A stretch of 64,000 nt of DNA from a virus (taxonomy: Duplodnaviria; Caudoviricetes), in IMG/VR virus record IMGVR_UViG_3300042691_038938. The stretch is one strand, 5' to 3'. Made by a program: the position numbers and the translations under genes. How positions within the stretch are numbered: position 1 is the stretch's first letter; every line of letters begins with the position of its first letter. The notes below the pieces were generated by a model. It was given only the letters and a program-made list of their open reading frames with translations, searched no databases and had not been told where the DNA came from. Of the stretch, positions 2,381 to 54,694 are shown in pieces.

Positions 2381-4912
2381 ATGGCATCAAAGAAAGTTTA
2401 TTCAGATCTATATGCAGACGGCGAGATAACTGGAAAGAAGATCACAGTTGATGGAGAGTATTCCTTGCCTCTAACTGACGGATTAGCTGGCCAGCTCATT
2501 TCGACTGATGGAGTGGGAAACCTTTCATTCGTTAACATCTCATCTCTAGGTTTGCTTAATCCTTCTAGCATAGTAAACGGCACAGGATTAACGTGGACTC
2601 AGATCTCTCCGGGAATATTACGAGGCGACGTTAGTCTTTCTCCATTTAGCACGACTAACCTAGTTGAGGGAAGTCGTCTCTACTTTACTAACGAAAGAGT
2701 TGACGACCGAGTCAATGCTCTACTTCTTGCTGGGACTGGAATTACTAAGTCATACAATGATGGAGCAGACTCCCTGACTCTAGGAGTCACGCTAGTACCA
2801 TTTAGCACTACTGATCTTGTAGAAGGGTCTAGGCTCTATTTCACGAACGAGAGAGTGGACGATAGAGTTGCAGCATTAATTCAAAACTCAGCGTCTGTTA
2901 CCTGGACCTATAACGATTCCCTAAACACCCTAACTGCAGAGGCGGTGACCTCGCCTCTACAGATTGAAAAGGACGGAGTCTTAGTGGCAGCTAGAGGAAA
3001 GGTCGACTTTATAACTGGATCGAACTCAACACTTACTGTGCTAGACGACGTGATAAACAGTAAAGTAACGGTACAAATTGACTCAAACGTTGGAGCGCTA
3101 GATGACTTATCTGATGTCACTATCCTTTCTCCAAATCCAGGAGAAGTACTAGCATATGTTGGTCCAGACTGGCAAAATGTACCAAATCCAGCAGTCATTC
3201 AAGTGGGCGCAGGAACAGGGTCCAGTATTAGAATCAATAATCTTAATACTGCAAGCGGACCTTATTCAACTGTGAGTGGCGGATACTTAAATACTGCATC
3301 TGCATACTATTCGACAGTCGGCGGAGGGTTAGGTAACACAGCAAGCGGCTATCAATCAGCAGTTGCTGGAGGAAACTCAAACATTTCTAACGGAAACGAA
3401 AGCTTTGTCGGAGGAGGATTATGTAATACCGCAAGCTCAGATTGCTCAACAGTAAGTGGAGGTCAGTCAAACTCGGCAACTGCCTGTTGGTCAGCGGTCA
3501 GTGGAGGATGCGGCAATACTTCATCTGGATATGGATCATTCATCGGCAGTGGCTGTTGTAATACTAGCTCAGGAAATTACTCAGTAATCAGCGGAGGAAG
3601 AATCAACACTTCAAGTTCATACGGTTCAGCCGTCGGTGGAGGATACTTAAATACGGCATTGGGTGCACAGTCAACGATTAGTGGAGGATATTGTAACACA
3701 GCGTCTGGAGCGTTTTCAGTAGTCGATGGAGGCTGTTGTAACACAGCATCAGATTGCTTTTCAACAGTCGGTGGAGGAAGATATAATACTTCATCTGGAT
3801 GCTATTCAGTTATCACCGGAGGAACTTGCAATCTATCTAGTGGATTTTTCTCAGCGTTGGCTGGAGGATTCTGCAATACTTCATCCTGTAGTGGATCATT
3901 CATTGGTGCAGGATATTGTAATACTAGTTCAGGAAATTACTCAGTAATTGGTGGAGGTTACATAAACCTATCTTCAGGAACAGATTCAGTGATCGGCGGA
4001 GGATTTAGAAATATTTCATCATGTAATAGATCAACGATTAGTGGAGGTTATTGCAACATAGCAAATGCAGATTGTTCAACAATAGGTGGAGGAAAAGTTA
4101 ACACAGTGACCGGCCTGAATTCAGCAATACTTGGTGGTAGAAATAACACAGCATCAAATACTGATTCAACAGTAGGTGGAGGATTCATGAACGTTGCTAG
4201 CGGATACGGCTCAGCTGTTCTTGGAGGATATTGTAACACAATGTCAAACTTTAACTCTGGTGCATTTGGCTGTAACATTACCTCAGTATGTGATAATACC
4301 TTTCATGCTAATTACTTGAACCTATACAACACACCAGAGTCAGCGACTTCAAACACCGCATCGCTAGTAAGAGACACTGTGACTGGCCAAGTAAAAGTTA
4401 GATATCAGGGAGGGATCTTTGCACAGACCACTTCAAGCACGCCGATAACTGGAACGATTACTGAAACCTCGGTGATCTCAACTGGTGTTGGGACTCTTAC
4501 TGTACCTGCGAATGGCTTCGCGGTCGGCGACAGCTTTGGAGTTTCAGTCGGGGGAGTGATCTCGTCGGCAAATGGTGAGACTGTTAGAATTAGAATAAAA
4601 TCAGGCTCAGTATTACTTGCAGACACCGGCACAGTATCTCTACCCGCACTATCCGGTAGATTTTGGTCCCTACAAGTACAGTTTACAATAAGAGCCATTG
4701 GAGCAGCAGGAGTTGCTTCCATCGCGGCAAACGGAATGTTTTCATTCTCTTCTTCTGGATTCGACATACTTGGCGCTGACTTGGGAGGAGTTGAAAACAC
4801 TCTCTTTGATACTACTGCCTCAAACACGCTAACGGTTACTGCCCAATGGGGATCGACGAACGCGACGAATAACATCTATTCTAACATATTTGTCGTAAAC
4901 AAGAACTATTAA
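2381..4912 (+). CDS. Tail fibre/adhesin-like protein with 22 x 15-aa NxxSGxxSxxxGGxx repeats
   Basis: 843 aa. Duplicated PFSTT(N/D)LVEGSRLYFTNERVDDRV module, a central beta-solenoid-type repeat and a beta-rich C-terminal domain. Confidence 0.7.
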   Translation: MASKKVYSDLYADGEITGKKITVDGEYSLPLTDGLAGQLISTDGVGNLSFVNISSLGLLNPSSIVNGTGLTWTQISPGILRGDVSLSPFSTTNLVEGSRLYFTNERVDDRVNALLLAGTGITKSYNDGADSLTLGVTLVPFSTTDLVEGSRLYFTNERVDDRVAALIQNSASVTWTYNDSLNTLTAEAVTSPLQIEKDGVLVAARGKVDFITGSNSTLTVLDDVINSKVTVQIDSNVGALDDLSDVTILSPNPGEVLAYVGPDWQNVPNPAVIQVGAGTGSSIRINNLNTASGPYSTVSGGYLNTASAYYSTVGGGLGNTASGYQSAVAGGNSNISNGNESFVGGGLCNTASSDCSTVSGGQSNSATACWSAVSGGCGNTSSGYGSFIGSGCCNTSSGNYSVISGGRINTSSSYGSAVGGGYLNTALGAQSTISGGYCNTASGAFSVVDGGCCNTASDCFSTVGGGRYNTSSGCYSVITGGTCNLSSGFFSALAGGFCNTSSCSGSFIGAGYCNTSSGNYSVIGGGYINLSSGTDSVIGGGFRNISSCNRSTISGGYCNIANADCSTIGGGKVNTVTGLNSAILGGRNNTASNTDSTVGGGFMNVASGYGSAVLGGYCNTMSNFNSGAFGCNITSVCDNTFHANYLNLYNTPESATSNTASLVRDTVTGQVKVRYQGGIFAQTTSSTPITGTITETSVISTGVGTLTVPANGFAVGDSFGVSVGGVISSANGETVRIRIKSGSVLLADTGTVSLPALSGRFWSLQVQFTIRAIGAAGVASIAANGMFSFSSSGFDILGADLGGVENTLFDTTASNTLTVTAQWGSTNATNNIYSNIFVVNKNY
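2642..2870 (+). repeat. Two diverged copies of a fibre module, 156 nt apart
   Basis: PFSTTNLVEGSRLYFTNERVDDRV at 2642 and PFSTTDLVEGSRLYFTNERVDDRV at 2798. The protein is nearly identical while synonymous sites differ. Confidence 0.85.
3245..4234 (+). repeat. Coding tandem repeat, 22 units of 45 nt
   Basis: Counted by hand from NTASGPYSTVSGGYL to NVASGYGSAVLGGYC. Confidence 0.9.
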
Positions 4913-4928
4913 AAAGAATATAACTTAG

Positions 4929-6716
4929 ATGAGCAAGAAGATTTTAAGCATTTCTCAACACAAGACAGTATGTAGTACACCAGCTACTCCGGATGCAGGC
5001 TACAGTAAGATCTACGTAAAATCAAATGGTTGTTGGTATCGACTTGACGACTCAGGTAACGAGTATCCGTTAGGCGGAGGAGGAGGAGTAATCGATGTGG
5101 GGAGCGGACCAAACTCAAGCCTTAGGATAAATAATTGTAATACTGCGAGTTCCAATTATTCGACTGCATTAGGCAGATGTAATAACTCATGTAGTCAATA
5201 CTCTACGATCAGTGGAGGTTGTAATAATACTGCAGGCTACACATCAACTGTTGGTGGAGGTCGAGGGAATAACGGATTCGGATTAGGTTCGACTATTTCA
5301 GGTGGGTGCAATAACGTAAGTGATGGTGCTTCAACATATCCAACTATTGGCGGAGGCTGCGCTAACTCAGTGAATGGAGCCGCATCAGTTGTTGGTGGAG
5401 GATGTTTAAACTCTGCATGCGGTTCAGCGTCAGTGATAAGTGGAGGATCCAATAATACGTCTAGTGGATATGTATCAACGTTGGGAGGAGGATTGTGCAA
5501 CGTTTCATCCTGCACTTATTCAACAATTGGCGGAGGTTACTGTAATCAAGCAACATCGCCATTATCAGTCATCGGCGGCGGAGGCAAAAATTACGTTTCC
5601 GGCTGTGGATCAACGATCAGTGGAGGTTACTTCAATAGCTCAAATAACAGCTTCGTAGCAATAGGAGGAGGACGATGTAACACTGCATCTGGATATTTTT
5701 CTATAATTAGCGGAGGCGCATCAAACTTCGCATGTTCAATATCGTCACTGGTAAGTAGCGGAAATTTAAACTCAGTCACTGCAATTTACTCCACTGTTAT
5801 AAATGGCAGTAATAACTCAGCTTCAGGAAATTTCGCACTCGTTGGAGGAGGTAGTAATAATACAGCAAGCGGCAGCTATTCGATAGTCGGAAACGGTTCA
5901 ATCAATATAGCAAGCGGAAATCACTCAGTTATTGTAGGAGGTTTTTGTAACAATGCAACTAGCGGTTTCGCAACAGTAAGCGGAGGTCGACGAAACACGG
6001 CATCCAGTGACTATTCAGTGGTTAGTGGAGGTTGTTGTAATACTGCTTCAGGTTATTCAGCGACTGTGAGCGGGGGTAGAAGAAACGCAACAGCCGCTGT
6101 TTGCTCAACAATAAGTGGAGGATATCTTAATAATATCTCGGCAGTAGGTTCGTATTCAGCAATAGGCGGTGGATATAACAACTGCATCACTTCTTCATGT
6201 AACGTAATTGCTGGAGGGCACTCGAACGTTTCTTCTGGAGCAAGATCAGTCGTTGGGGGAGGGACGGTAAATACTGCTAGTGCCAACACTGCGACTGTTA
6301 GTGGGGGGAGACAAAACACTGCAAGTGGATCTGATTCAACAGTCGGCGGAGGGTTAGGAAACTCATCGACTCAACCGTACGCAGCAATTAGCGGAGGATA
6401 CTGTAATGTTGCGAGTGGAGCTAGTTCAACCATTAGCGGAGGATACCGTAATACTGCGTCAGGCGCATCTGCAGGCATAGTCAGCGGCCAGTACAACTCA
6501 GCACAATGCGTGTCGACGCTTGTTGGAGGCCAATGCAATACTGCATGTCATGATTATGCTATCGTGCTTGGATGTGGACTCACATCAAACAGAGCGGCAG
6601 CAACATTCGTGAACCAGCTCTCCATCGTGAACCTACCAAGCTCTAGTGCAGGACTTCCATCCGGTGCATTATGGTATGATTCAGCAGACAGCTGCACAGT
6701 TAAATTCGTTCCATAG
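4929..6716 (+). CDS. Paralogous 15-aa-repeat fibre/adhesin-like protein, Cys-rich
   Basis: 595 aa. Shares the VIDVGSGxxSSLRINN lead-in and the repeat consensus with 2381..4912. Ends LSIVNLPSSSAGLPSGALWYD. Confidence 0.7.
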   Translation: MSKKILSISQHKTVCSTPATPDAGYSKIYVKSNGCWYRLDDSGNEYPLGGGGGVIDVGSGPNSSLRINNCNTASSNYSTALGRCNNSCSQYSTISGGCNNTAGYTSTVGGGRGNNGFGLGSTISGGCNNVSDGASTYPTIGGGCANSVNGAASVVGGGCLNSACGSASVISGGSNNTSSGYVSTLGGGLCNVSSCTYSTIGGGYCNQATSPLSVIGGGGKNYVSGCGSTISGGYFNSSNNSFVAIGGGRCNTASGYFSIISGGASNFACSISSLVSSGNLNSVTAIYSTVINGSNNSASGNFALVGGGSNNTASGSYSIVGNGSINIASGNHSVIVGGFCNNATSGFATVSGGRRNTASSDYSVVSGGCCNTASGYSATVSGGRRNATAAVCSTISGGYLNNISAVGSYSAIGGGYNNCITSSCNVIAGGHSNVSSGARSVVGGGTVNTASANTATVSGGRQNTASGSDSTVGGGLGNSSTQPYAAISGGYCNVASGASSTISGGYRNTASGASAGIVSGQYNSAQCVSTLVGGQCNTACHDYAIVLGCGLTSNRAAATFVNQLSIVNLPSSSAGLPSGALWYDSADSCTVKFVP

Positions 6717-6742
6717 ATAAATAATAAAAAAGATTTTAATAG

Positions 6743-8101
6743 ATGTACGGATCGGGAATACAGATACCTAGGATTGCTTTTTCAACAGTAGACTACGCAC
6801 AGATTCCAGCAAACAGCTTTTTCTTTGGTTTTGACTTGGATAATGCTGGTGCCCTTTCAAAAATGGACAACACAGGAGCAGTCACTGTGATCGAAGGAGC
6901 AGGTGGCGGAGGAGTAGTTGATACTGGTTCAGGCACCTATTCAACTTATAGGATATGCACAAGTAATAATGCGTCTGGCCCATACTCAACAGCCTTCGGC
7001 TATGCTAATAGTGCTAGTGGGTATGGAGCGACTGTCTCGGGAGGATATAATAATACTGTAAGCTCTGATCTCTCTACGGTTTCCGGAGGATATGGAAACA
7101 CCTCAAGCGGGTACTATTCAGTGGTCGGTGGAGGTGCATACAACACGGCGCTATCTGACTATTCAACATCTAGTGGAGGTTATGGAAACTCAGCAGCCAA
7201 TCTCGCAGCGACTGTCTCTGGTGGATACGGTAATTCAGCGACCGGTGCAGGAGCGACAATTTCCGGCGGAGTCGCTAACACGACAAGCGGATACTATTCA
7301 GTAATCGGCGGAGGAGCGTTTAACTCAATACAGTGTCAGTATTCAGTGATCGGCGGAGGATTCAATAACACTGCGTCTGGTTACAACGGTGCAACAATTG
7401 GTGGTGGAATAAACAACACTGCGTCTGGGTATAATCCATCAACTGTTGGAGGAGGATTCAGCAATACTGCGAGCGGAGGCTATTCAACGGTCAGCGGAGG
7501 TTATTTCAATACTTCTTCCGCTTATTACTCAACAGTCAGTGGAGGTTACGGTAATGTTGCGAGCGGAAGCTATTCAACAGTCAGTGGAGGATATGATAAT
7601 GCAGCGTGTGCCCAGTGTTCAACAGTGAGCGGCGGAGCGAATAACATAGTCCGAGGTTGCGGGTCAGCAGTAGTCGGAGGAGTTGACAATACATTAGGGT
7701 CTTGTGCAAGTTGTTCAATCATTGGTGGAGGTTGTTTCAATACGGTGACTAAAGAATTGTCATTCGTTGGTGGAGGGTTATGCAACTGTTCTTGTAGTAC
7801 AACTTCAGTGATCAGCGGAGGAGCTTTTAATACAACGTGTGGAGACTATTCAACAGTCAGTGGAGGATACGGAAACTTCGCTGACTCATTATATGGAGCA
7901 ATTCTTGGAGGACAGTGTAATAATACTTGCAGCTTTGCCTGTGCAACAATAGTCGGCTCAAATATTTGCGCAGTAGCCAACTGTACTCTGCATGCAAACT
8001 GTCTCTGGTTAAAGGATCTTCCTGACGATTCCGCTTTACCGTTACCTGCAGGAACAGTTTACTCGTGCACGGCTGAGGGAGGAAGGCTTTACATAGCATA
8101 A
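6743..8101 (+). CDS. Third paralogous 15-aa-repeat fibre/adhesin-like protein
   Basis: 452 aa. VVDTGSGTYSTYRI lead-in and the same repeat. C-terminal LKDLPDDSALPLPAGTVY resembles the end of 4929..6716. ATAAATAA at 6717-6724. Confidence 0.7.
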   Translation: MYGSGIQIPRIAFSTVDYAQIPANSFFFGFDLDNAGALSKMDNTGAVTVIEGAGGGGVVDTGSGTYSTYRICTSNNASGPYSTAFGYANSASGYGATVSGGYNNTVSSDLSTVSGGYGNTSSGYYSVVGGGAYNTALSDYSTSSGGYGNSAANLAATVSGGYGNSATGAGATISGGVANTTSGYYSVIGGGAFNSIQCQYSVIGGGFNNTASGYNGATIGGGINNTASGYNPSTVGGGFSNTASGGYSTVSGGYFNTSSAYYSTVSGGYGNVASGSYSTVSGGYDNAACAQCSTVSGGANNIVRGCGSAVVGGVDNTLGSCASCSIIGGGCFNTVTKELSFVGGGLCNCSCSTTSVISGGAFNTTCGDYSTVSGGYGNFADSLYGAILGGQCNNTCSFACATIVGSNICAVANCTLHANCLWLKDLPDDSALPLPAGTVYSCTAEGGRLYIA

Positions 8102-8117: not shown

Positions 8118-8582
8118 ATGGCGATAAAATTTGACTGTTTAAACATAATAGCTTTTAATACTCAAAGTAAAAAAGCTCAACCTAAAGCTGAGCCTAAACC
8201 AGAACCTGCGACCACCTACTCGGGTCGATTAAAATATGTGATTATTGACGACGTTAATTTAACGACTGATATCTCAATATCAGAAATGCAGTATGATGAG
8301 TTAGGTTTTGCAGAAGTGTATTCTTCCCTTCAGCAATACGTATCTTCAAAGACTGAACAGGTCTCTCCTACTCTAGGTTCCATTTATTTTACTCCAACCA
8401 CTGTGACTTTTAGATTACCGAAGACTCTGGAAAAAGTTCAAAGCAGTCCTAATCTTAGGGGAAACAATTCTAATTGGAATAAGGTGACCTTTAATACGAT
8501 TGGGGATGGTTTTGAGGGAACTGTGACGGATTTCTTTAATAACGTTGATAAGTTAGCTAGACAACAAGAAACTACTGTCTAA
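8118..8582 (+). CDS. Hypothetical protein
   Basis: 154-aa ORF co-oriented and closely spaced in the fibre cluster. Confidence 0.6.
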   Translation: MAIKFDCLNIIAFNTQSKKAQPKAEPKPEPATTYSGRLKYVIIDDVNLTTDISISEMQYDELGFAEVYSSLQQYVSSKTEQVSPTLGSIYFTPTTVTFRLPKTLEKVQSSPNLRGNNSNWNKVTFNTIGDGFEGTVTDFFNNVDKLARQQETTV

Positions 8583-8597
8583 TAAAAATATAAAAAC

Positions 8598-8909
8598 ATG
8601 TTTAATACTATTCACATTTTCGGATACGGTGAGACTCAAATCATCGGAAGTGAGCTTAACTTAAAAATAAGTTCCTCTACTCTAACTACACTAACTCCTT
8701 TTGTAGATCACATAAAGAGCCTACGTCCTAGCGATGTGCTTGAATCAGACTATCACGTGATTCACGTATTCAATGAAGCAAAGGTAATGTACTTGTCTCA
8801 GTCAGAATCGCAAGAAGAAAAGAGAACCTTTACTATTGACTTTGACCAGATCGACACGAGTATCTTGGAAAGCCTGATTCAGGAACTGTACTCTGCTACC
8901 ATCAGTTAA
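8598..8909 (+). CDS. Hypothetical protein, possible fibre assembly chaperone
   Basis: 103-aa ORF ending the fibre cluster. The function is a positional guess only. Confidence 0.55.
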   Translation: MFNTIHIFGYGETQIIGSELNLKISSSTLTTLTPFVDHIKSLRPSDVLESDYHVIHVFNEAKVMYLSQSESQEEKRTFTIDFDQIDTSILESLIQELYSATIS

Positions 8910-9721
8910 TAATACTTAAACTCATCGTAGAACCACTTGTAATTGGTCTTGATCCAGTTACAGACGTTTACTCCAAGCACATCCTTGTAATCGGGCTTGA
9001 GTGGCGAGATCTTTGTGCGAATCTTATGGTCGCCATAGATACCGTATACTGAGTCGTCTTCAGCGGTTATCTGTTCAACGTTATCAAAGTCATGAGAGAA
9101 TTCAGGAACTCCCAAGTACTGATAGATCCTTTTCATTTCCCTTTGGGGATTTTCAGTCAGGTCTTCGTACTTGACAAAAAGCATCTTCTTGTCGATTCCC
9201 TCCTTGAATATCTGATAGAGCCTCTCTATCGCAAGACCTACTGGCTGGCCCTGTGCCCATACGTCAATCCTCTTCTCAGTGGTTGTACCAGTCATCTTTG
9301 AGTGATCGACTATTCCAGAATCCATGTGCTGGTTCTTGCGAAAGTTCTTCTCCATTGAGGCAAAGATTCCGCGAAGGTCCCTGACCATGCAGACGATCTT
9401 GGGGTCTGGATAGAACTCATTAAGAAATCCATAGTGGATTCCCCAACCTCTACTCTTATCCATGACATACGGTCGGTCGGTGATCGCGTTGAAGAATCCA
9501 TGTACCCCGTCGTGACAGAATCGAGTAAATCCTGCTCTCATCAGGGATGAGTCCTGTGCCTTAAACTCAGGAGAATTAGTGTAATTGTTTCTGGCCGCAT
9601 ACACTAACTCCAGGACTCCCGAAGTGGGCGTGACATAGAAGTCAGGATTCTGGCCCAGGACGTTTTGTAAGAGAGTTGATCCTGCTCTTGGCAGGGACGA
9701 TTGAAAGAATATCTGTTTCAT
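8906..9721 (-). CDS. PAPS-dependent sulfotransferase (Sulfotransfer_3-like)
   Basis: N-terminal 5'-PSB loop SSLPRAGSTLL, 3'-PB motif VRDLRGIFAS and the typical VKYEDL(T)ENP...IYQYLG segment. Confidence 0.85.
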   Translation of the reverse strand: MKQIFFQSSLPRAGSTLLQNVLGQNPDFYVTPTSGVLELVYAARNNYTNSPEFKAQDSSLMRAGFTRFCHDGVHGFFNAITDRPYVMDKSRGWGIHYGFLNEFYPDPKIVCMVRDLRGIFASMEKNFRKNQHMDSGIVDHSKMTGTTTEKRIDVWAQGQPVGLAIERLYQIFKEGIDKKMLFVKYEDLTENPQREMKRIYQYLGVPEFSHDFDNVEQITAEDDSVYGIYGDHKIRTKISPLKPDYKDVLGVNVCNWIKTNYKWFYDEFKYY

Positions 9722-10353
9722 ATTATGTTTGATGAGTAACTTTTGTTTTGTATTACTTGATTGAAAGGCTGGATTATCCTGATCCTGTACTTGCCTATGT
9801 TAGTATGATTGTAACTCATGTGCTGTATCACCTTTGCGTAGAAATTGTCTATTTCCATTCCTGAATGAGCTCCCATCTCTAAGATATCGTCGTATAAGTT
9901 TGCAGTCACTCCATACGCATGAGCACAGACTATCTGATTCCTAAAGAAGGGTTCAATCAACCCACCGAAATAGAGCATGTCCCAATCATTAAGGATCTCC
10001 TGGTTTATTGTGAGTAATTCACTAGGGTCGATCAGGAATTCAACGTCGTCTTCAAGTATTAAGACTCGCTGATATCCTTGATTCTTAGCATACTGAATAG
10101 CATTGAGATGAGATTGTCTACAACCTAGCTGGCCCTTGATGTACTTTTCATCGTCCTTTATGAAATTACGATAACTTATCGGTTGAGGTAGAGATATCAA
10201 GTCACTTCCTGCGATCCTTTGAAAGTTCGTGATTCCAAACTTTTCAAACTGCTTGAGCATGCCATGATCACGAGAAACGTCCTTATCCATGTTGATATAG
10301 AGTATCTTGTCAAAGTACTCATTAATGTTTACTGGACGATAGGTAAAATCCAT
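9718..10353 (-). CDS. Glycosyltransferase family 25-like
   Basis: YINMDKDVSR, GQLGCRQSHL, LILEDDV and AHAYGV motifs. Confidence 0.8.
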   Translation of the reverse strand: MDFTYRPVNINEYFDKILYINMDKDVSRDHGMLKQFEKFGITNFQRIAGSDLISLPQPISYRNFIKDDEKYIKGQLGCRQSHLNAIQYAKNQGYQRVLILEDDVEFLIDPSELLTINQEILNDWDMLYFGGLIEPFFRNQIVCAHAYGVTANLYDDILEMGAHSGMEIDNFYAKVIQHMSYNHTNIGKYRIRIIQPFNQVIQNKSYSSNII

Positions 10354-11237
10354 TAGGTTAAGGCAATTGAGTTTAATACGTCTGATTCATCAAACACGTT
10401 CAAGTCAAGTAGAGGACACTCATGTAAGGTTCCATGGAAGTTGTAATCAAACAGATAACTGTCTGGTAGCTTAACTGTGTCAGGTAGTGTTGCTGTTATA
10501 TTGTTATGTAAAGACCAACCAAAGGTCTTAGGACTCGTTCCAACCCAAAGAACAGTAGAAGGTGCTCCCAAAGCCGCAGCTGCATGCTGAAGGCACGAAT
10601 CTATCAAGACTCTCTTTGATGAAAAGAGAAGCATTGAAAGAAATTCCATGTTAGACATAGGTTCAATGACTGCCTCAGCTCCTTCGATCGCTTGTTCAGG
10701 AAGACGACACACCTGTAAGATGTGATAGTCATTTGAAAAAGTCCTAACTATTTTCTCTGCTATGTCATGCGGCATGTCTCTAGTCCAGGAATAGGGATAA
10801 GGCTGATCCTTGAGAGGGCCGCCGTTTGTTTGAAGCACCATGATGGGTTTAGTTCTGGACCATTTTCTAAATCCATACTGTCTCTGTCTAACATTGAAGA
10901 GAAGCTCAGGAGTCTCTCCAGAATAGTCTAACTGATATAACTTACACCAATTCTCGACTAGCGGAAGTTCCTGGTGTATGTGTTCATTCGTAAAGTATGG
11001 CTCATGTTTGAATATCATGGTATCCTTGCCCTTAACATAGTCTTGATAAAAGTATGGAGTCATTCCAATTCGATAGACTCTGTCCACGAATGGAAGGTTT
11101 AAGAAGACTTCTGGATACGCACATACTACGATGAGCTCCCTATCCGGATGATTATTTTTGATGCACTTTGCAACAGCTGTTGCTGCGATGTGTTTGCCGA
11201 GTCCACCTTCTAGGTGAAAGATTGAGTATTTTTCCAT
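10353..11237 (-). CDS. GT-B glycosyltransferase, GT9 (heptosyltransferase)-like
   Basis: N-terminal GGLGKHIAAT...HPDRELIVVCAYPEVF and C-terminal IDSCLQHAAAALGAPSTVLWVGTSP. Confidence 0.75.
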   Translation of the reverse strand: MEKYSIFHLEGGLGKHIAATAVAKCIKNNHPDRELIVVCAYPEVFLNLPFVDRVYRIGMTPYFYQDYVKGKDTMIFKHEPYFTNEHIHQELPLVENWCKLYQLDYSGETPELLFNVRQRQYGFRKWSRTKPIMVLQTNGGPLKDQPYPYSWTRDMPHDIAEKIVRTFSNDYHILQVCRLPEQAIEGAEAVIEPMSNMEFLSMLLFSSKRVLIDSCLQHAAAALGAPSTVLWVGTSPKTFGWSLHNNITATLPDTVKLPDSYLFDYNFHGTLHECPLLDLNVFDESDVLNSIALT

Positions 11238-11239
11238 TT

Positions 11240-11644
11240 TTATTTCTTGCTTTTTAGTAGTTTTTCAAGTATTTCATGTCCCTTTGGATCCACTAGATCG
11301 TGCCATCCAGTCTCACCTGCGTGTATCTGTCGACGAATCTCTGTTGCTGAGATGTTCGCGATCTGCGAGTCTACTTGGATCTCCTTTACCTCATATCCGA
11401 CACCTCTTCCGTAATTTACGCTAGCAATATCAGGTATGATGATGATTTTTACTAATGGGTCTCCTTTATAGATTTCCAGCCAAATCTCAGATACTTCTGC
11501 TGCAGAGAGAGGATTTTTATCGTCTGGCTCAACATCTCGAATAGCAATTAAGATGGGCTTGCCCTTGCCTAAGTATTCGTTAAAGATGGTCATGTGACCC
11601 TTGTGAGGAGACTGATATCTCCCAATAAACATGTTATACGTCAT
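11240..11644 (-). CDS. HIGH-superfamily nucleotidyltransferase (NMNAT/cytidylyltransferase-like)
   Basis: FIGRYQSPHKGH and ISATEIR motifs. The likely start is MTYNMF at 11644, in an ATGA overlap with the upstream stop. Confidence 0.8.
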   Translation of the reverse strand: MTYNMFIGRYQSPHKGHMTIFNEYLGKGKPILIAIRDVEPDDKNPLSAAEVSEIWLEIYKGDPLVKIIIIPDIASVNYGRGVGYEVKEIQVDSQIANISATEIRRQIHAGETGWHDLVDPKGHEILEKLLKSKK

Positions 11645-12084
11645 TTTTTCTTTATTTTTTCTAGTCCAAATGGTATCTTGTACCAAATCCTTTCGTGTAT
11701 GTAGTATGTAAATATCTTGATAAAGAAATCAGCTGTCCCTATCGAAAAACCTATCGTGATGCTCCCGGTAAGAAATGCGGCGATTAACGAAGTTATCGTA
11801 GAGGAATAGAAACGGTAAGTTATTGATTTTAAGATGTGTCTAAGTTTAGAGACTCTATTCTTTTCTCGAACCAGAACTATCTTGTTTTTGTCCCAGTGAA
11901 TGGAATCAACCTCACACGTGATGTGATACTTCTTTCCGACTCCCTCGACTTCATCCTGAGTGGTGTACGCCGCTCCATGAATCTCAAGATCGCTAGCTAG
12001 GTGTTCAACACCGTTTATGATGACTCGCCAAAAGAGGCCTGAATCACCAGCATCATGATTATATCGTATCTTGACTAGATGCAT
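11641..12084 (-). CDS. Two-domain protein with a C-terminal DUF2061-like membrane domain
   Basis: C-terminal RHILKSITYR...TADFFIKIFTYYIHERIW matches the DUF2061 pattern as I recall it. The N-terminal ~70 aa are soluble. Confidence 0.7.
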   Translation of the reverse strand: MHLVKIRYNHDAGDSGLFWRVIINGVEHLASDLEIHGAAYTTQDEVEGVGKKYHITCEVDSIHWDKNKIVLVREKNRVSKLRHILKSITYRFYSSTITSLIAAFLTGSITIGFSIGTADFFIKIFTYYIHERIWYKIPFGLEKIKKK

Positions 12085-12512
12085 CCTCTCAATATTAGGT
12101 GAGCCTTAATGATTCGTAGGCAGTCTAACTCGCTTGCCTTAGTATCAATTGGAAGGTAATCATTCACAGGTTCTTCATAATCGCTGACGAAAAAGTTTTC
12201 TCTTCCTCTAATGTCGCTCGTTTGTAAGAATATCTCAACTGTTTCTGCAGATTCCTTTAGCTCTTCTCTAAGATCTAGATAAGGGCTAACTAGTGCAAGA
12301 ATAGGAGTAAACCCCTTAGCGTCCAAGAATCTAGCGATATTGTAAGCATTAGTAAGGTTTCGACGACGTCCCTCTTGGCTATAATCCTTATTTTTGAATA
12401 TTTCTCGCATCTCATCTCCATCGATTATCATGGGATTAGGAACGATTTTTGCGATCTCTGCCGCAAGGGTAGACTTTCCAGCACCAGGCTGACCTATAAA
12501 ATGAATTATCAT
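12075..12512 (-). CDS. cysC: Adenylyl-sulfate (APS) kinase
   Basis: GQPGAGKST Walker A, IDGDEMR, DYSQEGRRRN, ALVSPY and DYEEP motifs. Confidence 0.85.
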   Translation of the reverse strand: MIIHFIGQPGAGKSTLAAEIAKIVPNPMIIDGDEMREIFKNKDYSQEGRRRNLTNAYNIARFLDAKGFTPILALVSPYLDLREELKESAETVEIFLQTSDIRGRENFFVSDYEEPVNDYLPIDTKASELDCLRIIKAHLILRGCI

Positions 12513-12530
12513 TAGAAAATAGTTTGTATG

Positions 12531-12556
12531 TTTTACTACAAACAGAAAGAATAGTT
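12531..12556 (-). promoter_or_regulatory. Putative early/middle promoter (AACTATT-N12-AGTAAAA) of the sulfation operon
   Basis: Matches a motif seen at five other intergenic sites and lies ~20 nt upstream of cysC. Confidence 0.5.
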
Positions 12557-12557
12557 C

Positions 12558-17867: not shown

Positions 17868-18668
17868 TTGAAAGAAAAACAGATACTCGATCCTCTATGG
17901 ATAACTAAGGGCAGTTATCTAGATCCAGAATACTTTAGCTACATACTCTTGGCAGCAAGCCAAAAGTACAGAAAGGATCTTGAAGAAGGAGACCTTCGCT
18001 ACTTTTATGAGCTCTTCTTTCATAGCTTGAACCTAAATAACTTGGCGATAGACGGTAGCTTATTTGATTCAAAGCTTCATCCCATCTGGCAGAACGAAAG
18101 ATTGAATGCAATAAAGAAAGAATTACGACAGATCTTTGAGAGAAAGACGGAGGTCGTTGAGATATTTAGAAATGCAAATTACGTCTTCTTAAACCTGATC
18201 CTAGAATACATGGATCAGCAGCTAGCCGCTTTTGACTTAATGGAGATCTTTTATATGAATGAGATGATTCATGAACAACAGGAGATATTCATAGTGATGA
18301 ATGAGGTCGGAAGCAAGCAATACTCGATTTGGTGCGTGAAAGAAGACTTTACTAAGGATTATGGAGTCTCATTTAGAAAAGTAAAAACGATCGTCCTTGA
18401 TGAGATCAAGGAAAACGCTCTCAAAGAAAAGTTGAGTGAGATGAATCACCCGACCTTAAATAGAATGAAGGACAAGAAGAATGTCGTTTTTGCAATAACT
18501 GAAGAAGTCGATCAAAAAATTGCGGCAAATGTCGTGAAAGACACAATTTTGCTAAACAAGGGGATTGCTAAGGGAATAGCCTTTGAGACAAACATCATCG
18601 CTGAGCTTCAGGCTCTACTTGTTGTTGAGAACCTGATGCCCTTTACTCTTTCTCAATGGATCGATTAG
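17868..18668 (+). CDS. Hypothetical protein under a late-type promoter
   Basis: 266-aa ORF with a TTG start; ATAAATAA at 17842-17849. Confidence 0.65.
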   Translation: MKEKQILDPLWITKGSYLDPEYFSYILLAASQKYRKDLEEGDLRYFYELFFHSLNLNNLAIDGSLFDSKLHPIWQNERLNAIKKELRQIFERKTEVVEIFRNANYVFLNLILEYMDQQLAAFDLMEIFYMNEMIHEQQEIFIVMNEVGSKQYSIWCVKEDFTKDYGVSFRKVKTIVLDEIKENALKEKLSEMNHPTLNRMKDKKNVVFAITEEVDQKIAANVVKDTILLNKGIAKGIAFETNIIAELQALLVVENLMPFTLSQWID

Positions 18669-42416: not shown

Positions 42417-44784
<2,368 letters not shown>

Positions 44785-53258: not shown

Positions 53259-54398
53259 ATGGACTTAATAATAGATGGAAATGCCTTTATCAACATTGCG
53301 ATAAGTGTCACCAAGTCTCTTTCTCAAAAGGATAAGAGAGTGGGTGAAGCTTATTACGTTAATGATCTGTTCAGCGACGGCGGATTCATCTTAAAGGATC
53401 AAGTTAAAGTAGCTTTTAAGAATTTTTGTTTTACTTACTTGAATTCTCTGATTGCGCCAATCTCATCAAGTCCAGAAAAGATACACATCGTCTTTGATTC
53501 TACGAGTTGGAGAAAAGATTACACTGATCGATTCTTCAGAAATTCTGAATTCAAGACTAGCTCAGCACCAACTGAATTTAAGTATAAGGGTAATCGCAAA
53601 TATGATGACCACCAATACTTATTCTTTGACTATTTTCAACAAGTGATCATGTCAGCTCTAACTCAAAGGGCTGGCATAAATCACTACAAATTCAAAGGCA
53701 CTGAAGGTGATGACATAATAGCTTACTTGTGTGACGTTATTGAGGGTGATATCCTGATCTACTCAGTCGATCAGGATCTAAAACAATTGACTGGGCACTC
53801 TAAAAAGAATGTCCTATTGATAACTCCAAAACAAATGGCCAAGACCAAGAGACTCTTTGTACCTGCTCAATTGGTTCCAACCGCCGCCGATGACGAAGTA
53901 GATAATTTCTTTTCTTTGAATGATGTTCACATAACTGGAGCAACCATTGAAAAGACTATATCTAATCTCACAAGTAAAGATTATGTAGAGCATAAAGTAG
54001 ACTTCGTGGATGATATCTTAAGCAAGATCCTTTTAGGAGACAAGTCGGATAACATTCCAAAGATCACAAATATTTCTCCATCTAAAGCAAAAAAAGTAAT
54101 ATCTTCGATTCAGGAAAGATTTGGAGAAAATCTTATCGAGCAATTAGATGATCTAAATGAGGAACTGATCTTAGGAATAGTGAATGAGATCAAGATAGTA
54201 AATAAGATAAAGGACCAGGATAAATTAGATGAGGTTAGAGAGCATCTTCTCTTTAATACTAAGCTAATACGTCTTTCAGTTAAAGTGTTTCCTAAGGAAA
54301 TCAGAGATCTCCTAGATGAATTCTTTAGCACATACGAAAGCACAACCTTTAATCAAAAAGAATTTAACAATTTAAAAAATAACTTATCGCTCTTATGA
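53259..54398 (+). CDS. 5'-3' exonuclease/flap endonuclease (T4 RNase H-like)
   Basis: IIDGN, VFDS..SWRK, YKGNRK, EGDDII, SVDQD and GDKSDNIP. Confidence 0.88.
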   Translation: MDLIIDGNAFINIAISVTKSLSQKDKRVGEAYYVNDLFSDGGFILKDQVKVAFKNFCFTYLNSLIAPISSSPEKIHIVFDSTSWRKDYTDRFFRNSEFKTSSAPTEFKYKGNRKYDDHQYLFFDYFQQVIMSALTQRAGINHYKFKGTEGDDIIAYLCDVIEGDILIYSVDQDLKQLTGHSKKNVLLITPKQMAKTKRLFVPAQLVPTAADDEVDNFFSLNDVHITGATIEKTISNLTSKDYVEHKVDFVDDILSKILLGDKSDNIPKITNISPSKAKKVISSIQERFGENLIEQLDDLNEELILGIVNEIKIVNKIKDQDKLDEVREHLLFNTKLIRLSVKVFPKEIRDLLDEFFSTYESTTFNQKEFNNLKNNLSLL

Positions 54399-54694
54399 AG
54401 CCATTATATGAAAGAATTCTGGTAAAACCCAGAGAAAAAGAGATCAGAACTAAGCAAGGAATACTTCTTCCTGAAAAAGCCGTAAAGAAACCAAATATCG
54501 GTGTTGTTATCTCATGCGGAGACGGAACTCCTAATAATCCAATGAAAGTTTCTCCAGGAGACAAAGTTCTATTCAATCGATATGCTGGAGTAGAATTAAA
54601 CTTTAGAGGAGAAAAACACTATGTGATACTCTCAAATGAAGTAATTGGAGTCTTAGAAGACTTTGATGATATCTCTTTAGAGGATTTTGAATAA
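54395..54694 (+). CDS. groS: Co-chaperonin GroES
   Basis: MKPLYERILVK, GILLP, GVVISCGDG and GDKVLF..YAG. Confidence 0.93.
   Translation: MKPLYERILVKPREKEIRTKQGILLPEKAVKKPNIGVVISCGDGTPNNPMKVSPGDKVLFNRYAGVELNFRGEKHYVILSNEVIGVLEDFDDISLEDFE

Follow-up and report, generated by a model that had tools for sequence, protein, structure and literature searches.

In a 64,000-nucleotide stretch of a Caudoviricetes virus (IMG/VR record IMGVR_UViG_3300042691_038938; the whole stretch is hereafter the window), six minus-strand genes encode an adenosine 5'-phosphosulfate (APS) kinase-like protein, a protein with the DUF2061 family domain, a small HxGH nucleotidyltransferase (NT), a glycosyltransferase of the GT9 fold (GT9L), a GT25 glycosyltransferase and a sulfotransferase (ST) (Table 1). 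On balance, we read these genes as a two-module sulfation system that depends on 3'-phosphoadenosine 5'-phosphosulfate (PAPS), with the phage's own fibres as the most likely acceptor. The argument is built on gene content, folds, synteny, gene fusions and a missing-enzyme pattern, all of which are seen directly in the data.

In the mechanism that we propose, a SulP permease encoded elsewhere in the genome could import sulfate, NT would adenylylate it (ATP + sulfate -> APS + PPi), and the lid-shortened kinase would phosphorylate APS to PAPS, accompanied by the DUF2061 protein, possibly as a membrane tether. The GT9-fold enzyme, aided by the GT25 enzyme, would build a short glycan that ST would then sulfate using PAPS, and the acceptor would be the phage's own low-charge fibres, in the manner of the autotransporter adhesins glycosylated by the GT9-fold enzymes TibC and AAH. 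Within this scheme we infer what NT acts on, what DUF2061 does, which sugars serve as donors and what the acceptor is.

Two separable modules in related phages

To compare the gene content of related phages we used 12 IMG/VR loci that carry GT9L, plus other loci (numbered with the prefix L). GT9L and ST are adjacent in every related phage locus that spans both, and they form a constant core that lies beside repeat-fibre genes in most loci. Homologous fibres adjoin this pair in 9 related loci, in three different gene arrangements. The GT25 gene is found in 7 of 14 phage loci, and would be an optional second sugar transferase. Fusions are also observed within the GT9L family, which has 685 representative clusters: three representative proteins (P0200, P0210 and P0223) join GT9L to GT25, three join GT9L to an FkbM methyltransferase, and one of the GT9L-GT25 fusion genes overlaps the following sulfotransferase gene by 4 nt. 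The adjacency of GT9L and ST and the fusions of GT9L fit a glycan that is built and then capped. In the cyanophage AG-345-L05, a GT9L that is 56% identical to that of the window lies one gene away from a sulfotransferase. The cluster in this genome (Marine virus, Kyanoviridae; L001:2148-11869) comprises a GT4/GT1 glycosyltransferase, two 2-oxoglutarate (2OG) oxygenases, a 916-aa laminin-G protein, the sulfotransferase, a DUF7936 protein, GT9L and a NodU-like carbamoyltransferase.

The kinase, DUF2061 and NT genes occur together in six loci (the window, L005, L007, L012, L015 and L047, with the kinase of L005, L007 and L012 detected by tblastn), and they are jointly absent from at least six other phage loci. 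In the closest relative, L004 (96% identity in GT9L), an in-frame deletion removes the unit: a 115-aa open reading frame (ORF; L004:7652-7999) begins with kinase residues 1-34 and continues with the last ~80 residues of NT, the DUF2061 gene is gone, and GT9L, GT25 and ST are intact. A joint with matching position (window 11483/12409) is found in contigs from two metagenome runs, which also hold the full form. The joint presence and absence of the three genes, together with the deletion in L004, indicate that the PAPS module is one unit and that it is dispensable.

An earlier interpretation made from the sequence alone (hereafter the sequence-only reading) had described a single sulfation operon, and had named a lack of co-occurrence in relatives as one outcome that would count against it. 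Our neighbourhood survey, which covered phages and 30 bacterial loci, shows GT9L and ST as constant neighbours and the kinase, DUF2061 and NT genes travelling together. The co-occurrence within each set agrees with that description, but the operon consists of two separable modules, and the PAPS supply can be dispensed with in close relatives.

PAPS supply and a candidate small ATP sulfurylase

The kinase matches Pfam PF01583 with 45.4 bits (cut-off 21.1), and its matches in PDB are exclusively APS kinases. When aligned with bacterial DUF2061-CysC proteins and PDB APS kinases, it keeps the P-loop and the DGDxxR, DYSxEGRxxN and SPY motifs, and we propose from these features that the phage kinase converts APS to PAPS. 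Its companion matches the DUF2061 family (PF09834) with 52 bits (cut-off 23.1) at residues 84-134, so that an N-terminal ~80-aa domain of unknown fold precedes a C-terminal DUF2061 hydrophobic hairpin. The DUF2061 protein possibly tethers the kinase, and with it PAPS synthesis, to the membrane. A DUF2061 gene sits with nodH, nodP and nodQ in Mesorhizobium. A protein-atlas search with the phage DUF2061 protein brought up nothing beyond the viral DUF2061 clusters to which it belongs and structural rows with low TM scores, and the literature searched gave no function for DUF2061 beyond gene lists.

The motifs HKGH and ISATEIR are invariant in NT, which places it in the HxGH nucleotidyltransferase superfamily, and a flexible loop (PDIxSVNYGRxVGY) is invariant and specific to the family. 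NT always adjoins an APS kinase, in phage as well as in bacterial loci. The two are fused in phrog_10255, in gp32 of Xylella phage Salvo (248 aa, L016:3977-4723) and in the AFDB entry A0A2H0VSV5 (named adenylyl-sulfate kinase), with the same domain order as PAPS synthase (PAPSS), in which the APS kinase comes first. The fusion is common to Salvo-like siphophages of Xylella, Xanthomonas and Stenotrophomonas, where it lies among MazG, topoisomerase and methyltransferase genes. The predicted complex of the kinase with NT scored 0.00, which is below the mark and has no bearing either way on whether the two bind.

A pattern scan across prokaryotes, with each species represented by one genome, located NT in 30 bacterial loci (29 genomes), almost all of them in Chitinophagaceae, with 60-68% identity to the phage NT. 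In all 30, the gene directly upstream of NT encodes an APS kinase with DUF2061 fused at its N-terminal end, and this kinase is full length (PF01583, 2e-50; TIGR00455, 188 bits, above the cut-off). A divergent sulfotransferase follows NT in 24 of the 30. This 322-aa bacterial protein was considered as an orthologue of the phage ST and rejected, because only the 5'-phosphosulfate-binding (5'-PSB) loop aligns. About 22 bacterial loci share an island of a formyltransferase, a binding protein, 2-3 phage-tail-collar proteins, an Asp/Asn hydroxylase, the cassette and a 2OG oxygenase, and this island looks like a hydroxylation and sulfation system for fibre-like proteins. An example from these loci (L017, L019, L021-L050) is L017:990-10072, where a periplasmic-binding protein, tandem collar proteins, an Asp/Asn beta-hydroxylase and a 2OG-Fe(II) oxygenase are encoded.

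The canonical ATP sulfurylases are largely missing from the genomes that carry NT. None of the 29 has Sat, and strong CysD/CysH matches are present in 4 and absent from the other 25, while in 5 of 5 NT genomes checked the cassette copy is the only full-length APS kinase. Among 150 other genomes sampled from this family, none was found to carry NT; of these NT-free genomes 53 have an APS kinase, and CysD/CysH is present in 52 of the 53, often adjacent to the kinase (NT versus CysD/CysH, Fisher P = 8e-16). NT occupies the genomic and metabolic place of CysD. The linkage to APS kinase, the fusions and the missing-enzyme pattern together suggest that NT is probably a non-canonical, very small ATP sulfurylase that makes APS. 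The sequence-only reading called the module self-contained, a description that would hold only if NT is the ATP sulfurylase.

A wider proposal, to which we give slightly less than an even chance, is that the NT proteins of 130-140 aa constitute a third and minimal ATP sulfurylase class, which together with the DUF2061-associated kinase replaces CysDN/Sat as a dedicated PAPS synthase in Chitinophagaceae and phages, and that the phage runs a complete private pathway (SulP import, NT, kinase and two sulfotransferases) giving sulfated tail-fibre glycans. As part of that proposal, sulfated fibre glycans would be a virion modification not yet described for any phage. The permease is found on a contig that shares 11,181 bp with the window at 100% identity and extends past the window end: a SulP-family protein of 391 aa (PF00916, 8e-37, no STAS domain listed) is encoded at window-equivalent 81640-82815 (L055:121-1296, minus strand in the locus), ~17.6 kb beyond the window end, in a gene that overlaps a helicase gene upstream and a gyrB-like gene downstream. 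On a closely related 96-kb contig (L059:7065-18276), a second glycan cluster separates the gp23 capsid block from the baseplate, and it encodes CTP_transf_3 (cytidylyltransferase-like, possibly NeuA-type), a hexapeptide acyltransferase, AsnB, PIG-L, a 248-aa sulfotransferase, GT2 and NeuB. The PAPS module may thus supply both this sulfotransferase and ST.

In the literature searched there was no paper on a non-canonical ATP sulfurylase, none on phage cysC together with a sulfotransferase, and no report of a linked import, activation and transfer system beside fibre genes. Phage sulfotransferases are already annotated in databases, and cysC is known as a viral gene.

Transferases, acceptor and alternative explanations

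ST scores above the cut-off for both of its Pfam families (79.2 bits for PF13469 and 50.5 bits for PF00685). The PAPS-binding motifs are invariant in 10 phage ST homologues, namely the 5'-PSB loop PR(A/S)GSTLL (PRAGST in the window) and the 3'-phosphate-binding (3'-PB) R/S of VRDLRGIFAS. By family, 5'-PSB and 3'-PB, ST is classed as a PAPS-dependent sulfotransferase. The nearest PDB sequences are TPST1/2 (E 5e-7 to 7e-4), and the nearest NCBIfam model is NoeE, a sugar sulfotransferase, with a score below its cut-off.

The predicted model of GT9L has a GT-B fold (pLDDT 96.2) and is closest in fold to the GT9 heptosyltransferases: the Foldseek matches in PDB begin with 3tov (Veillonella GT9, 2e-11) and 1psw (WaaF, 5e-11), followed by WaaC and TibC, to 1e-7. 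The match of GT9L to PF01075 is weak (E 0.015, 15 bits against a cut-off of 22) and covers residues 210-251, which hold IDSCLQHAAAALGAP, to be compared with the C-terminal GT9 donor motif D(S/T)xxxH-AAA-G-P; the family member P0299 reaches 22.9 bits. The N-terminal glycine-rich motif of GT9L is GGLGK. The stretches read showed no genes of a heptose pathway. The GT25 protein matches PF01755 with 38.1 bits (cut-off 24) and carries a DXD-type EDD inside LILEDDVEF, as expected of its family.

The six genes are the end of a minus-strand late structural run that starts with neck and gp15-like (sheath stabiliser) genes, and they converge on three tandem fibre genes. The fibre proteins have 15-aa Ser/Thr/Gly/Asn repeats with very few charged residues, are Tyr-rich (up to 7%) within SGY and GGY motifs, and show weak beta-roll, YadA-head and UspA1 repeat matches. 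The position at the end of the late structural run, facing the fibre genes, makes the fibres the most likely acceptor, and we propose that they are the substrate of the six-gene module. Four points favour this choice: the genes persistently adjoin fibre genes, their context is late and structural, TibC sets a precedent for a GT9-fold enzyme that acts on repeat adhesins, and the bacterial cassette is itself found beside fibre-like Collar proteins.

Several observations weigh against the proposed system. The kinase falls below the NCBIfam cut-offs for cysC (TIGR00455, 45 against 138.7 bits; NF004041, 50.8 against 127), with only the first ~100 residues aligned, and it is without ~15 residues of the lid, including the FTG segment (full lid RDPKGLYxKAxxGEIxxFTGI); the deletion is shared by the kinases of the window, L015 and L040, and the lid is kept in L047 and in the bacterial versions. 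NT is closest by both sequence and fold to nicotinamide mononucleotide (NMN) adenylyltransferase (NMNAT) and phosphopantetheine adenylyltransferase (PPAT), not to Sat, has no PF01747 match at E <= 0.1, and at 134 aa carries GRYQSPHKGH, whereas the Sat type is marked by QxRNPxHxxH and GRD motifs and a PUA-like N-domain; this places NT outside the Sat-type family. The genomes with NT are mostly metagenome-assembled genomes and may represent one or a few related lineages, so that the 25 genomes lacking CysD/CysH are not independent events. In Salvo-like phages the kinase-NT fusion is encoded within a DNA-metabolism region and no sulfotransferase is detectable, and the kinase-NT pair may thus serve something other than feeding a sulfotransferase. 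GT9L has GGLGK where WaaC would have its catalytic Asp (D13). In L011 the 8 kb upstream of GT9L show nothing homologous to the fibres. GT9 and GT25 enzymes classically act on lipopolysaccharide (LPS) cores, and the adjacency to fibres may be inherited synteny within one phage lineage.

The classical role of these enzymes leads to an alternative with the same enzymology, in which a glycan of the host envelope (LPS core, lipooligosaccharide or capsule) would be the acceptor; this could, for example, exclude superinfecting phages or keep progeny from adsorbing to lysed cells. WaaC and WaaF are among the top structural matches, GT9 and GT25 are typical of the LPS core and lipooligosaccharide, and a DUF2061 protein predicted to be in the membrane would place PAPS synthesis at the inner membrane, where the core is assembled. 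We consider this acceptor unlikely, because the phage is a large lytic-type T4-like myovirus with these genes in a late structural run, the adjacency to fibres persists through three gene arrangements, TibC, a protein-modifying GT9-fold enzyme, matches GT9L nearly as well as WaaC does, and many Bacteroidota are without heptose cores. It is less probable still that ST acts directly on the fibre protein (sulfating Tyr or Ser/Thr in the manner of TPST), with both glycosyltransferases modifying the same protein independently. The TPST1/2 structures nearest to ST, the Tyr-rich repeats, and the bacterial cassette with protein hydroxylases beside Collar proteins and no glycosyltransferase agree with direct sulfation, but the phage ST is always paired with GT9L, a GT9L-GT25 fusion overlaps an ST gene, the best NCBIfam match is NoeE, and the Tyr residues of the fibres are without the acidic neighbours that TPST sites typically have. 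A sugar on hypermodified phage DNA is a very improbable target: the Salvo-like fusions do lie among DNA-metabolism genes, but here the genes are among late structural rather than early replication genes, their constant neighbour is a fibre gene, and GT9 and GT25 enzymes have no known DNA acceptors.

The other alternatives concern the source and the use of APS. NT could be an NMN/NaMN adenylyltransferase for NAD salvage, or could make an ADP-sugar donor for the GT9-fold enzyme, with APS taken from the host. The best fold matches of the NT model are PPAT and NMNAT (TM 0.64-0.75), compared with rank 10 for the sulfurylase domain of PAPSS1 (TM 0.56 by query); the source (JGI) annotations label NT as NMN adenylyltransferase; GT9 enzymes use ADP-heptose, the synthesis of which needs a small HxGH adenylyltransferase; and the Salvo-like fusion stands without a sulfotransferase. 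However, NT scores only 26-33 bits against the archaeal NMNAT models (TIGR01527 and NF002243; cut-offs 127-181), which leaves it outside that family, and its alignment to MJ0541 omits ~34 NMNAT residues and gains a 10-residue insertion. NT also tracks the APS kinase and not GT9L, since the bacterial loci have NT without GT9L and at least six phage loci have GT9L without NT, and 25 of the 29 genomes with NT have an APS kinase and no canonical ATP sulfurylase. We therefore regard a role for NT outside APS synthesis as rather doubtful.

Genes of the cysC type are counted among viral auxiliary metabolic genes for sulfur, and the kinase could in principle boost host cysteine synthesis, with neighbours that are unrelated to it. 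A tblastn search with Chitinophaga CysD and CysH found no homologue in the window or in ~45 kb beyond its end, partly on a closely related contig (~110 kb of the lineage), which bears out the statement of the sequence-only reading that no PAPS reductase is in the window. The kinase is translationally coupled to the other five genes, and it co-occurs with sulfotransferases in phages and bacteria. With PAPS reductase and sulfite reductase absent from these stretches, sulfur assimilation does not fit and is the most remote of the explanations considered, and the co-occurrence in relatives supports the earlier view of a module that builds and sulfates a glycan.

The proposed system shares with the PAPS synthases of metazoans (PAPSS1/2), with CysDN/CysC and with NodP/NodQ the two-step logic from sulfate to APS to PAPS that we suggest here, and the kinase-first order of Salvo gp32 and A0A2H0VSV5 is that of PAPSS1/2. 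It differs from all of these in its 134-aa NMNAT/PPAT-like adenylyltransferase with no PF01747 or CysD match, in the shortened lid of the kinase, and in having a DUF2061 membrane-type protein as an obligatory companion. As in Nod-factor sulfation (NodPQ with NodH/NoeE) and in Xanthomonas RaxPQ with RaxST, genes dedicated to PAPS supply would be grouped with a dedicated sulfotransferase gene whose product modifies a secreted or surface molecule, and the likeness to the rhizobial system extends to NoeE as the best NCBIfam match of ST and to the DUF2061 gene in Mesorhizobium nodH/nodPQ loci; here, however, the genes are phage-encoded, the candidate ATP sulfurylase is not of the CysDN type, and the partners are GT9-fold and GT25 enzymes beside fibre genes. 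The glycosylation of TibA and AIDA-I by TibC and AAH likewise has a GT9-fold enzyme encoded beside a repeat-rich, Ser/Thr-rich adhesin-like protein of the beta-helical or beta-roll kind, but TibC, for which an iron finger and a dodecamer are described, is longer than GT9L by ~100 residues, the stretches read show no ADP-heptose pathway, and the proposed system would go on to sulfation as a further step.

In mycobacteriophages, phage-encoded glycosyltransferases with genes close to the structural ones probably modify proteins of the virion. The gene position is alike, whereas the glycosyltransferase families, the host phylum and the target (fibres here, capsid or tail tube there) differ, and for virion glycosylation of that type we found no report of sulfation or of a donor-supply module in the literature searched. 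The stand-alone sulfotransferases of cyanophages (S-SCSM1, S-SKS1, S-SRM01 and AG-345) belong to the same family as ST (27-30% identity, phrog_27463), but no kinase, NT or DUF2061 module lies near them in the stretches fetched; their neighbours are 2OG oxygenases, a carbamoyltransferase and GT4. A search of the phage collection with the kinase returned no cyanophage.

If NT does make APS, a known universal reaction gains a third and much smaller catalyst, the 'orphan' APS kinases of genomes seemingly unable to activate sulfate are explained, hundreds of 'NMN adenylyltransferase' annotations would be corrected, and a compact two-gene PAPS generator becomes available for biocatalysis. If the whole pathway holds, this would be the first phage, within the literature searched, to import and activate sulfate itself and then transfer it to a glycan, and sulfated glycans on nearly uncharged fibres would alter how charged and how sticky the virion is and how it interacts with receptors. 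The parallel bacterial island, with its hydroxylases, PAPS cassette, sulfotransferase and tandem collar proteins, points to a wider, unstudied sulfation of fibre-like proteins.

Gene layout and genomic setting

The six minus-strand ORFs are all present at 8906-12512, and the ORFs, family scans and junctions (overlaps of 10, 4, 1 and 4 nt and one 2-nt gap) confirm the coupled genes and the families assigned to them by the sequence-only reading. That reading extended the operon to 12556; the genes are as it placed them, but the last gene ends at 12512, and the remainder is a 45-nt intergenic spacer. Its TTG start for NT at 11686 is replaced by the ATG at 11644 (MTYNMF...), which is supported by ~790 homologues of 130-142 aa. 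The Ser/Thr-rich fibre genes are nearby as it described, but they do not abut the operon, because two small plus-strand ORFs intervene. One or the other of these is kept at the same place in L004, L005 and L007, and they may encode fibre accessory or assembly proteins.

Table 1. Position and main family evidence of the six genes and the features around them in the window
Feature	Position	Strand	Size and evidence
Three tandem fibre genes	2381..8101	+	Ser/Thr/Gly/Asn-rich, 15-aa repeats
Two small ORFs	8118-8582, 8598-8909	+	154 and 103 aa; no Pfam or PHROG family match
ST, sulfotransferase	8906..9721	-	271 aa; PF13469 (Sulfotransfer_3) 7e-22, PF00685 2e-13
GT25 glycosyltransferase	9718..10353	-	211 aa; PF01755 2e-9, phrog_2835 'glucosyltransferase' 7e-17
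GT9L, GT-B glycosyltransferase of GT9 (heptosyltransferase) fold	10353..11237	-	predicted model and Foldseek PDB matches
NT, HxGH adenylyltransferase	11240..11644	-	134 aa; CTP_transf_like 1.5e-4; motifs GRYQSPHKGH, ISATEIR
DUF2061 protein	11641..12084	-	147 aa; PF09834 9e-14, C-terminal half only
APS-kinase-like P-loop kinase, shortened lid	12075..12512	-	145 aa; PF01583 (APS_kinase) 1e-11
Spacer 5' of the kinase gene	12513..12557	-	45 nt; 7-bp inverted repeat and T-rich run, read from the sequence

The motif ATAAATAA recurs 15-35 nt 5' of structural-gene start codons (for example at 948, 6743, 14827, 17773, 17868, 34411, 37509, 55329 and 59357) and may be a late promoter. It is not present in the spacer 5' of the kinase gene, which instead holds a hairpin (GTTTGTA n8 TACAAAC) followed by the T-rich run, a structure that could act as an attenuator. 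The T4 late promoter TATAAATA was rejected as a candidate, with a single occurrence in 64 kb that is not above chance, and a sigma-70 scan gave fewer sites in the window than in shuffled sequence. Replication genes are preceded instead by TAGTATAAT-like boxes (38865, 51946 and 59474).

A 213-kb contig encodes the proteins of the window, and the phage is a large T4-like myovirus with a gp23-type capsid protein, a sheath, a gp15-like protein, GroEL and Cpn10. No close relative was found among INPHARED phages by megablast or blastn, and several studies have sampled the phage in freshwater and lake metagenomes. Divergent from the neck gene is a 266-aa plus-strand ORF (17868-18668) with a weak match to the Gasdermin pore-forming domain (E 0.004, below the cut-off). 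The GroEL gene lies at 43177-44784 on the plus strand (phrog_5725, 1e-151), and the Cpn10/GroES-like protein of 99 aa is encoded at 54395-54694, also on the plus strand, according to the gene calls of L053.

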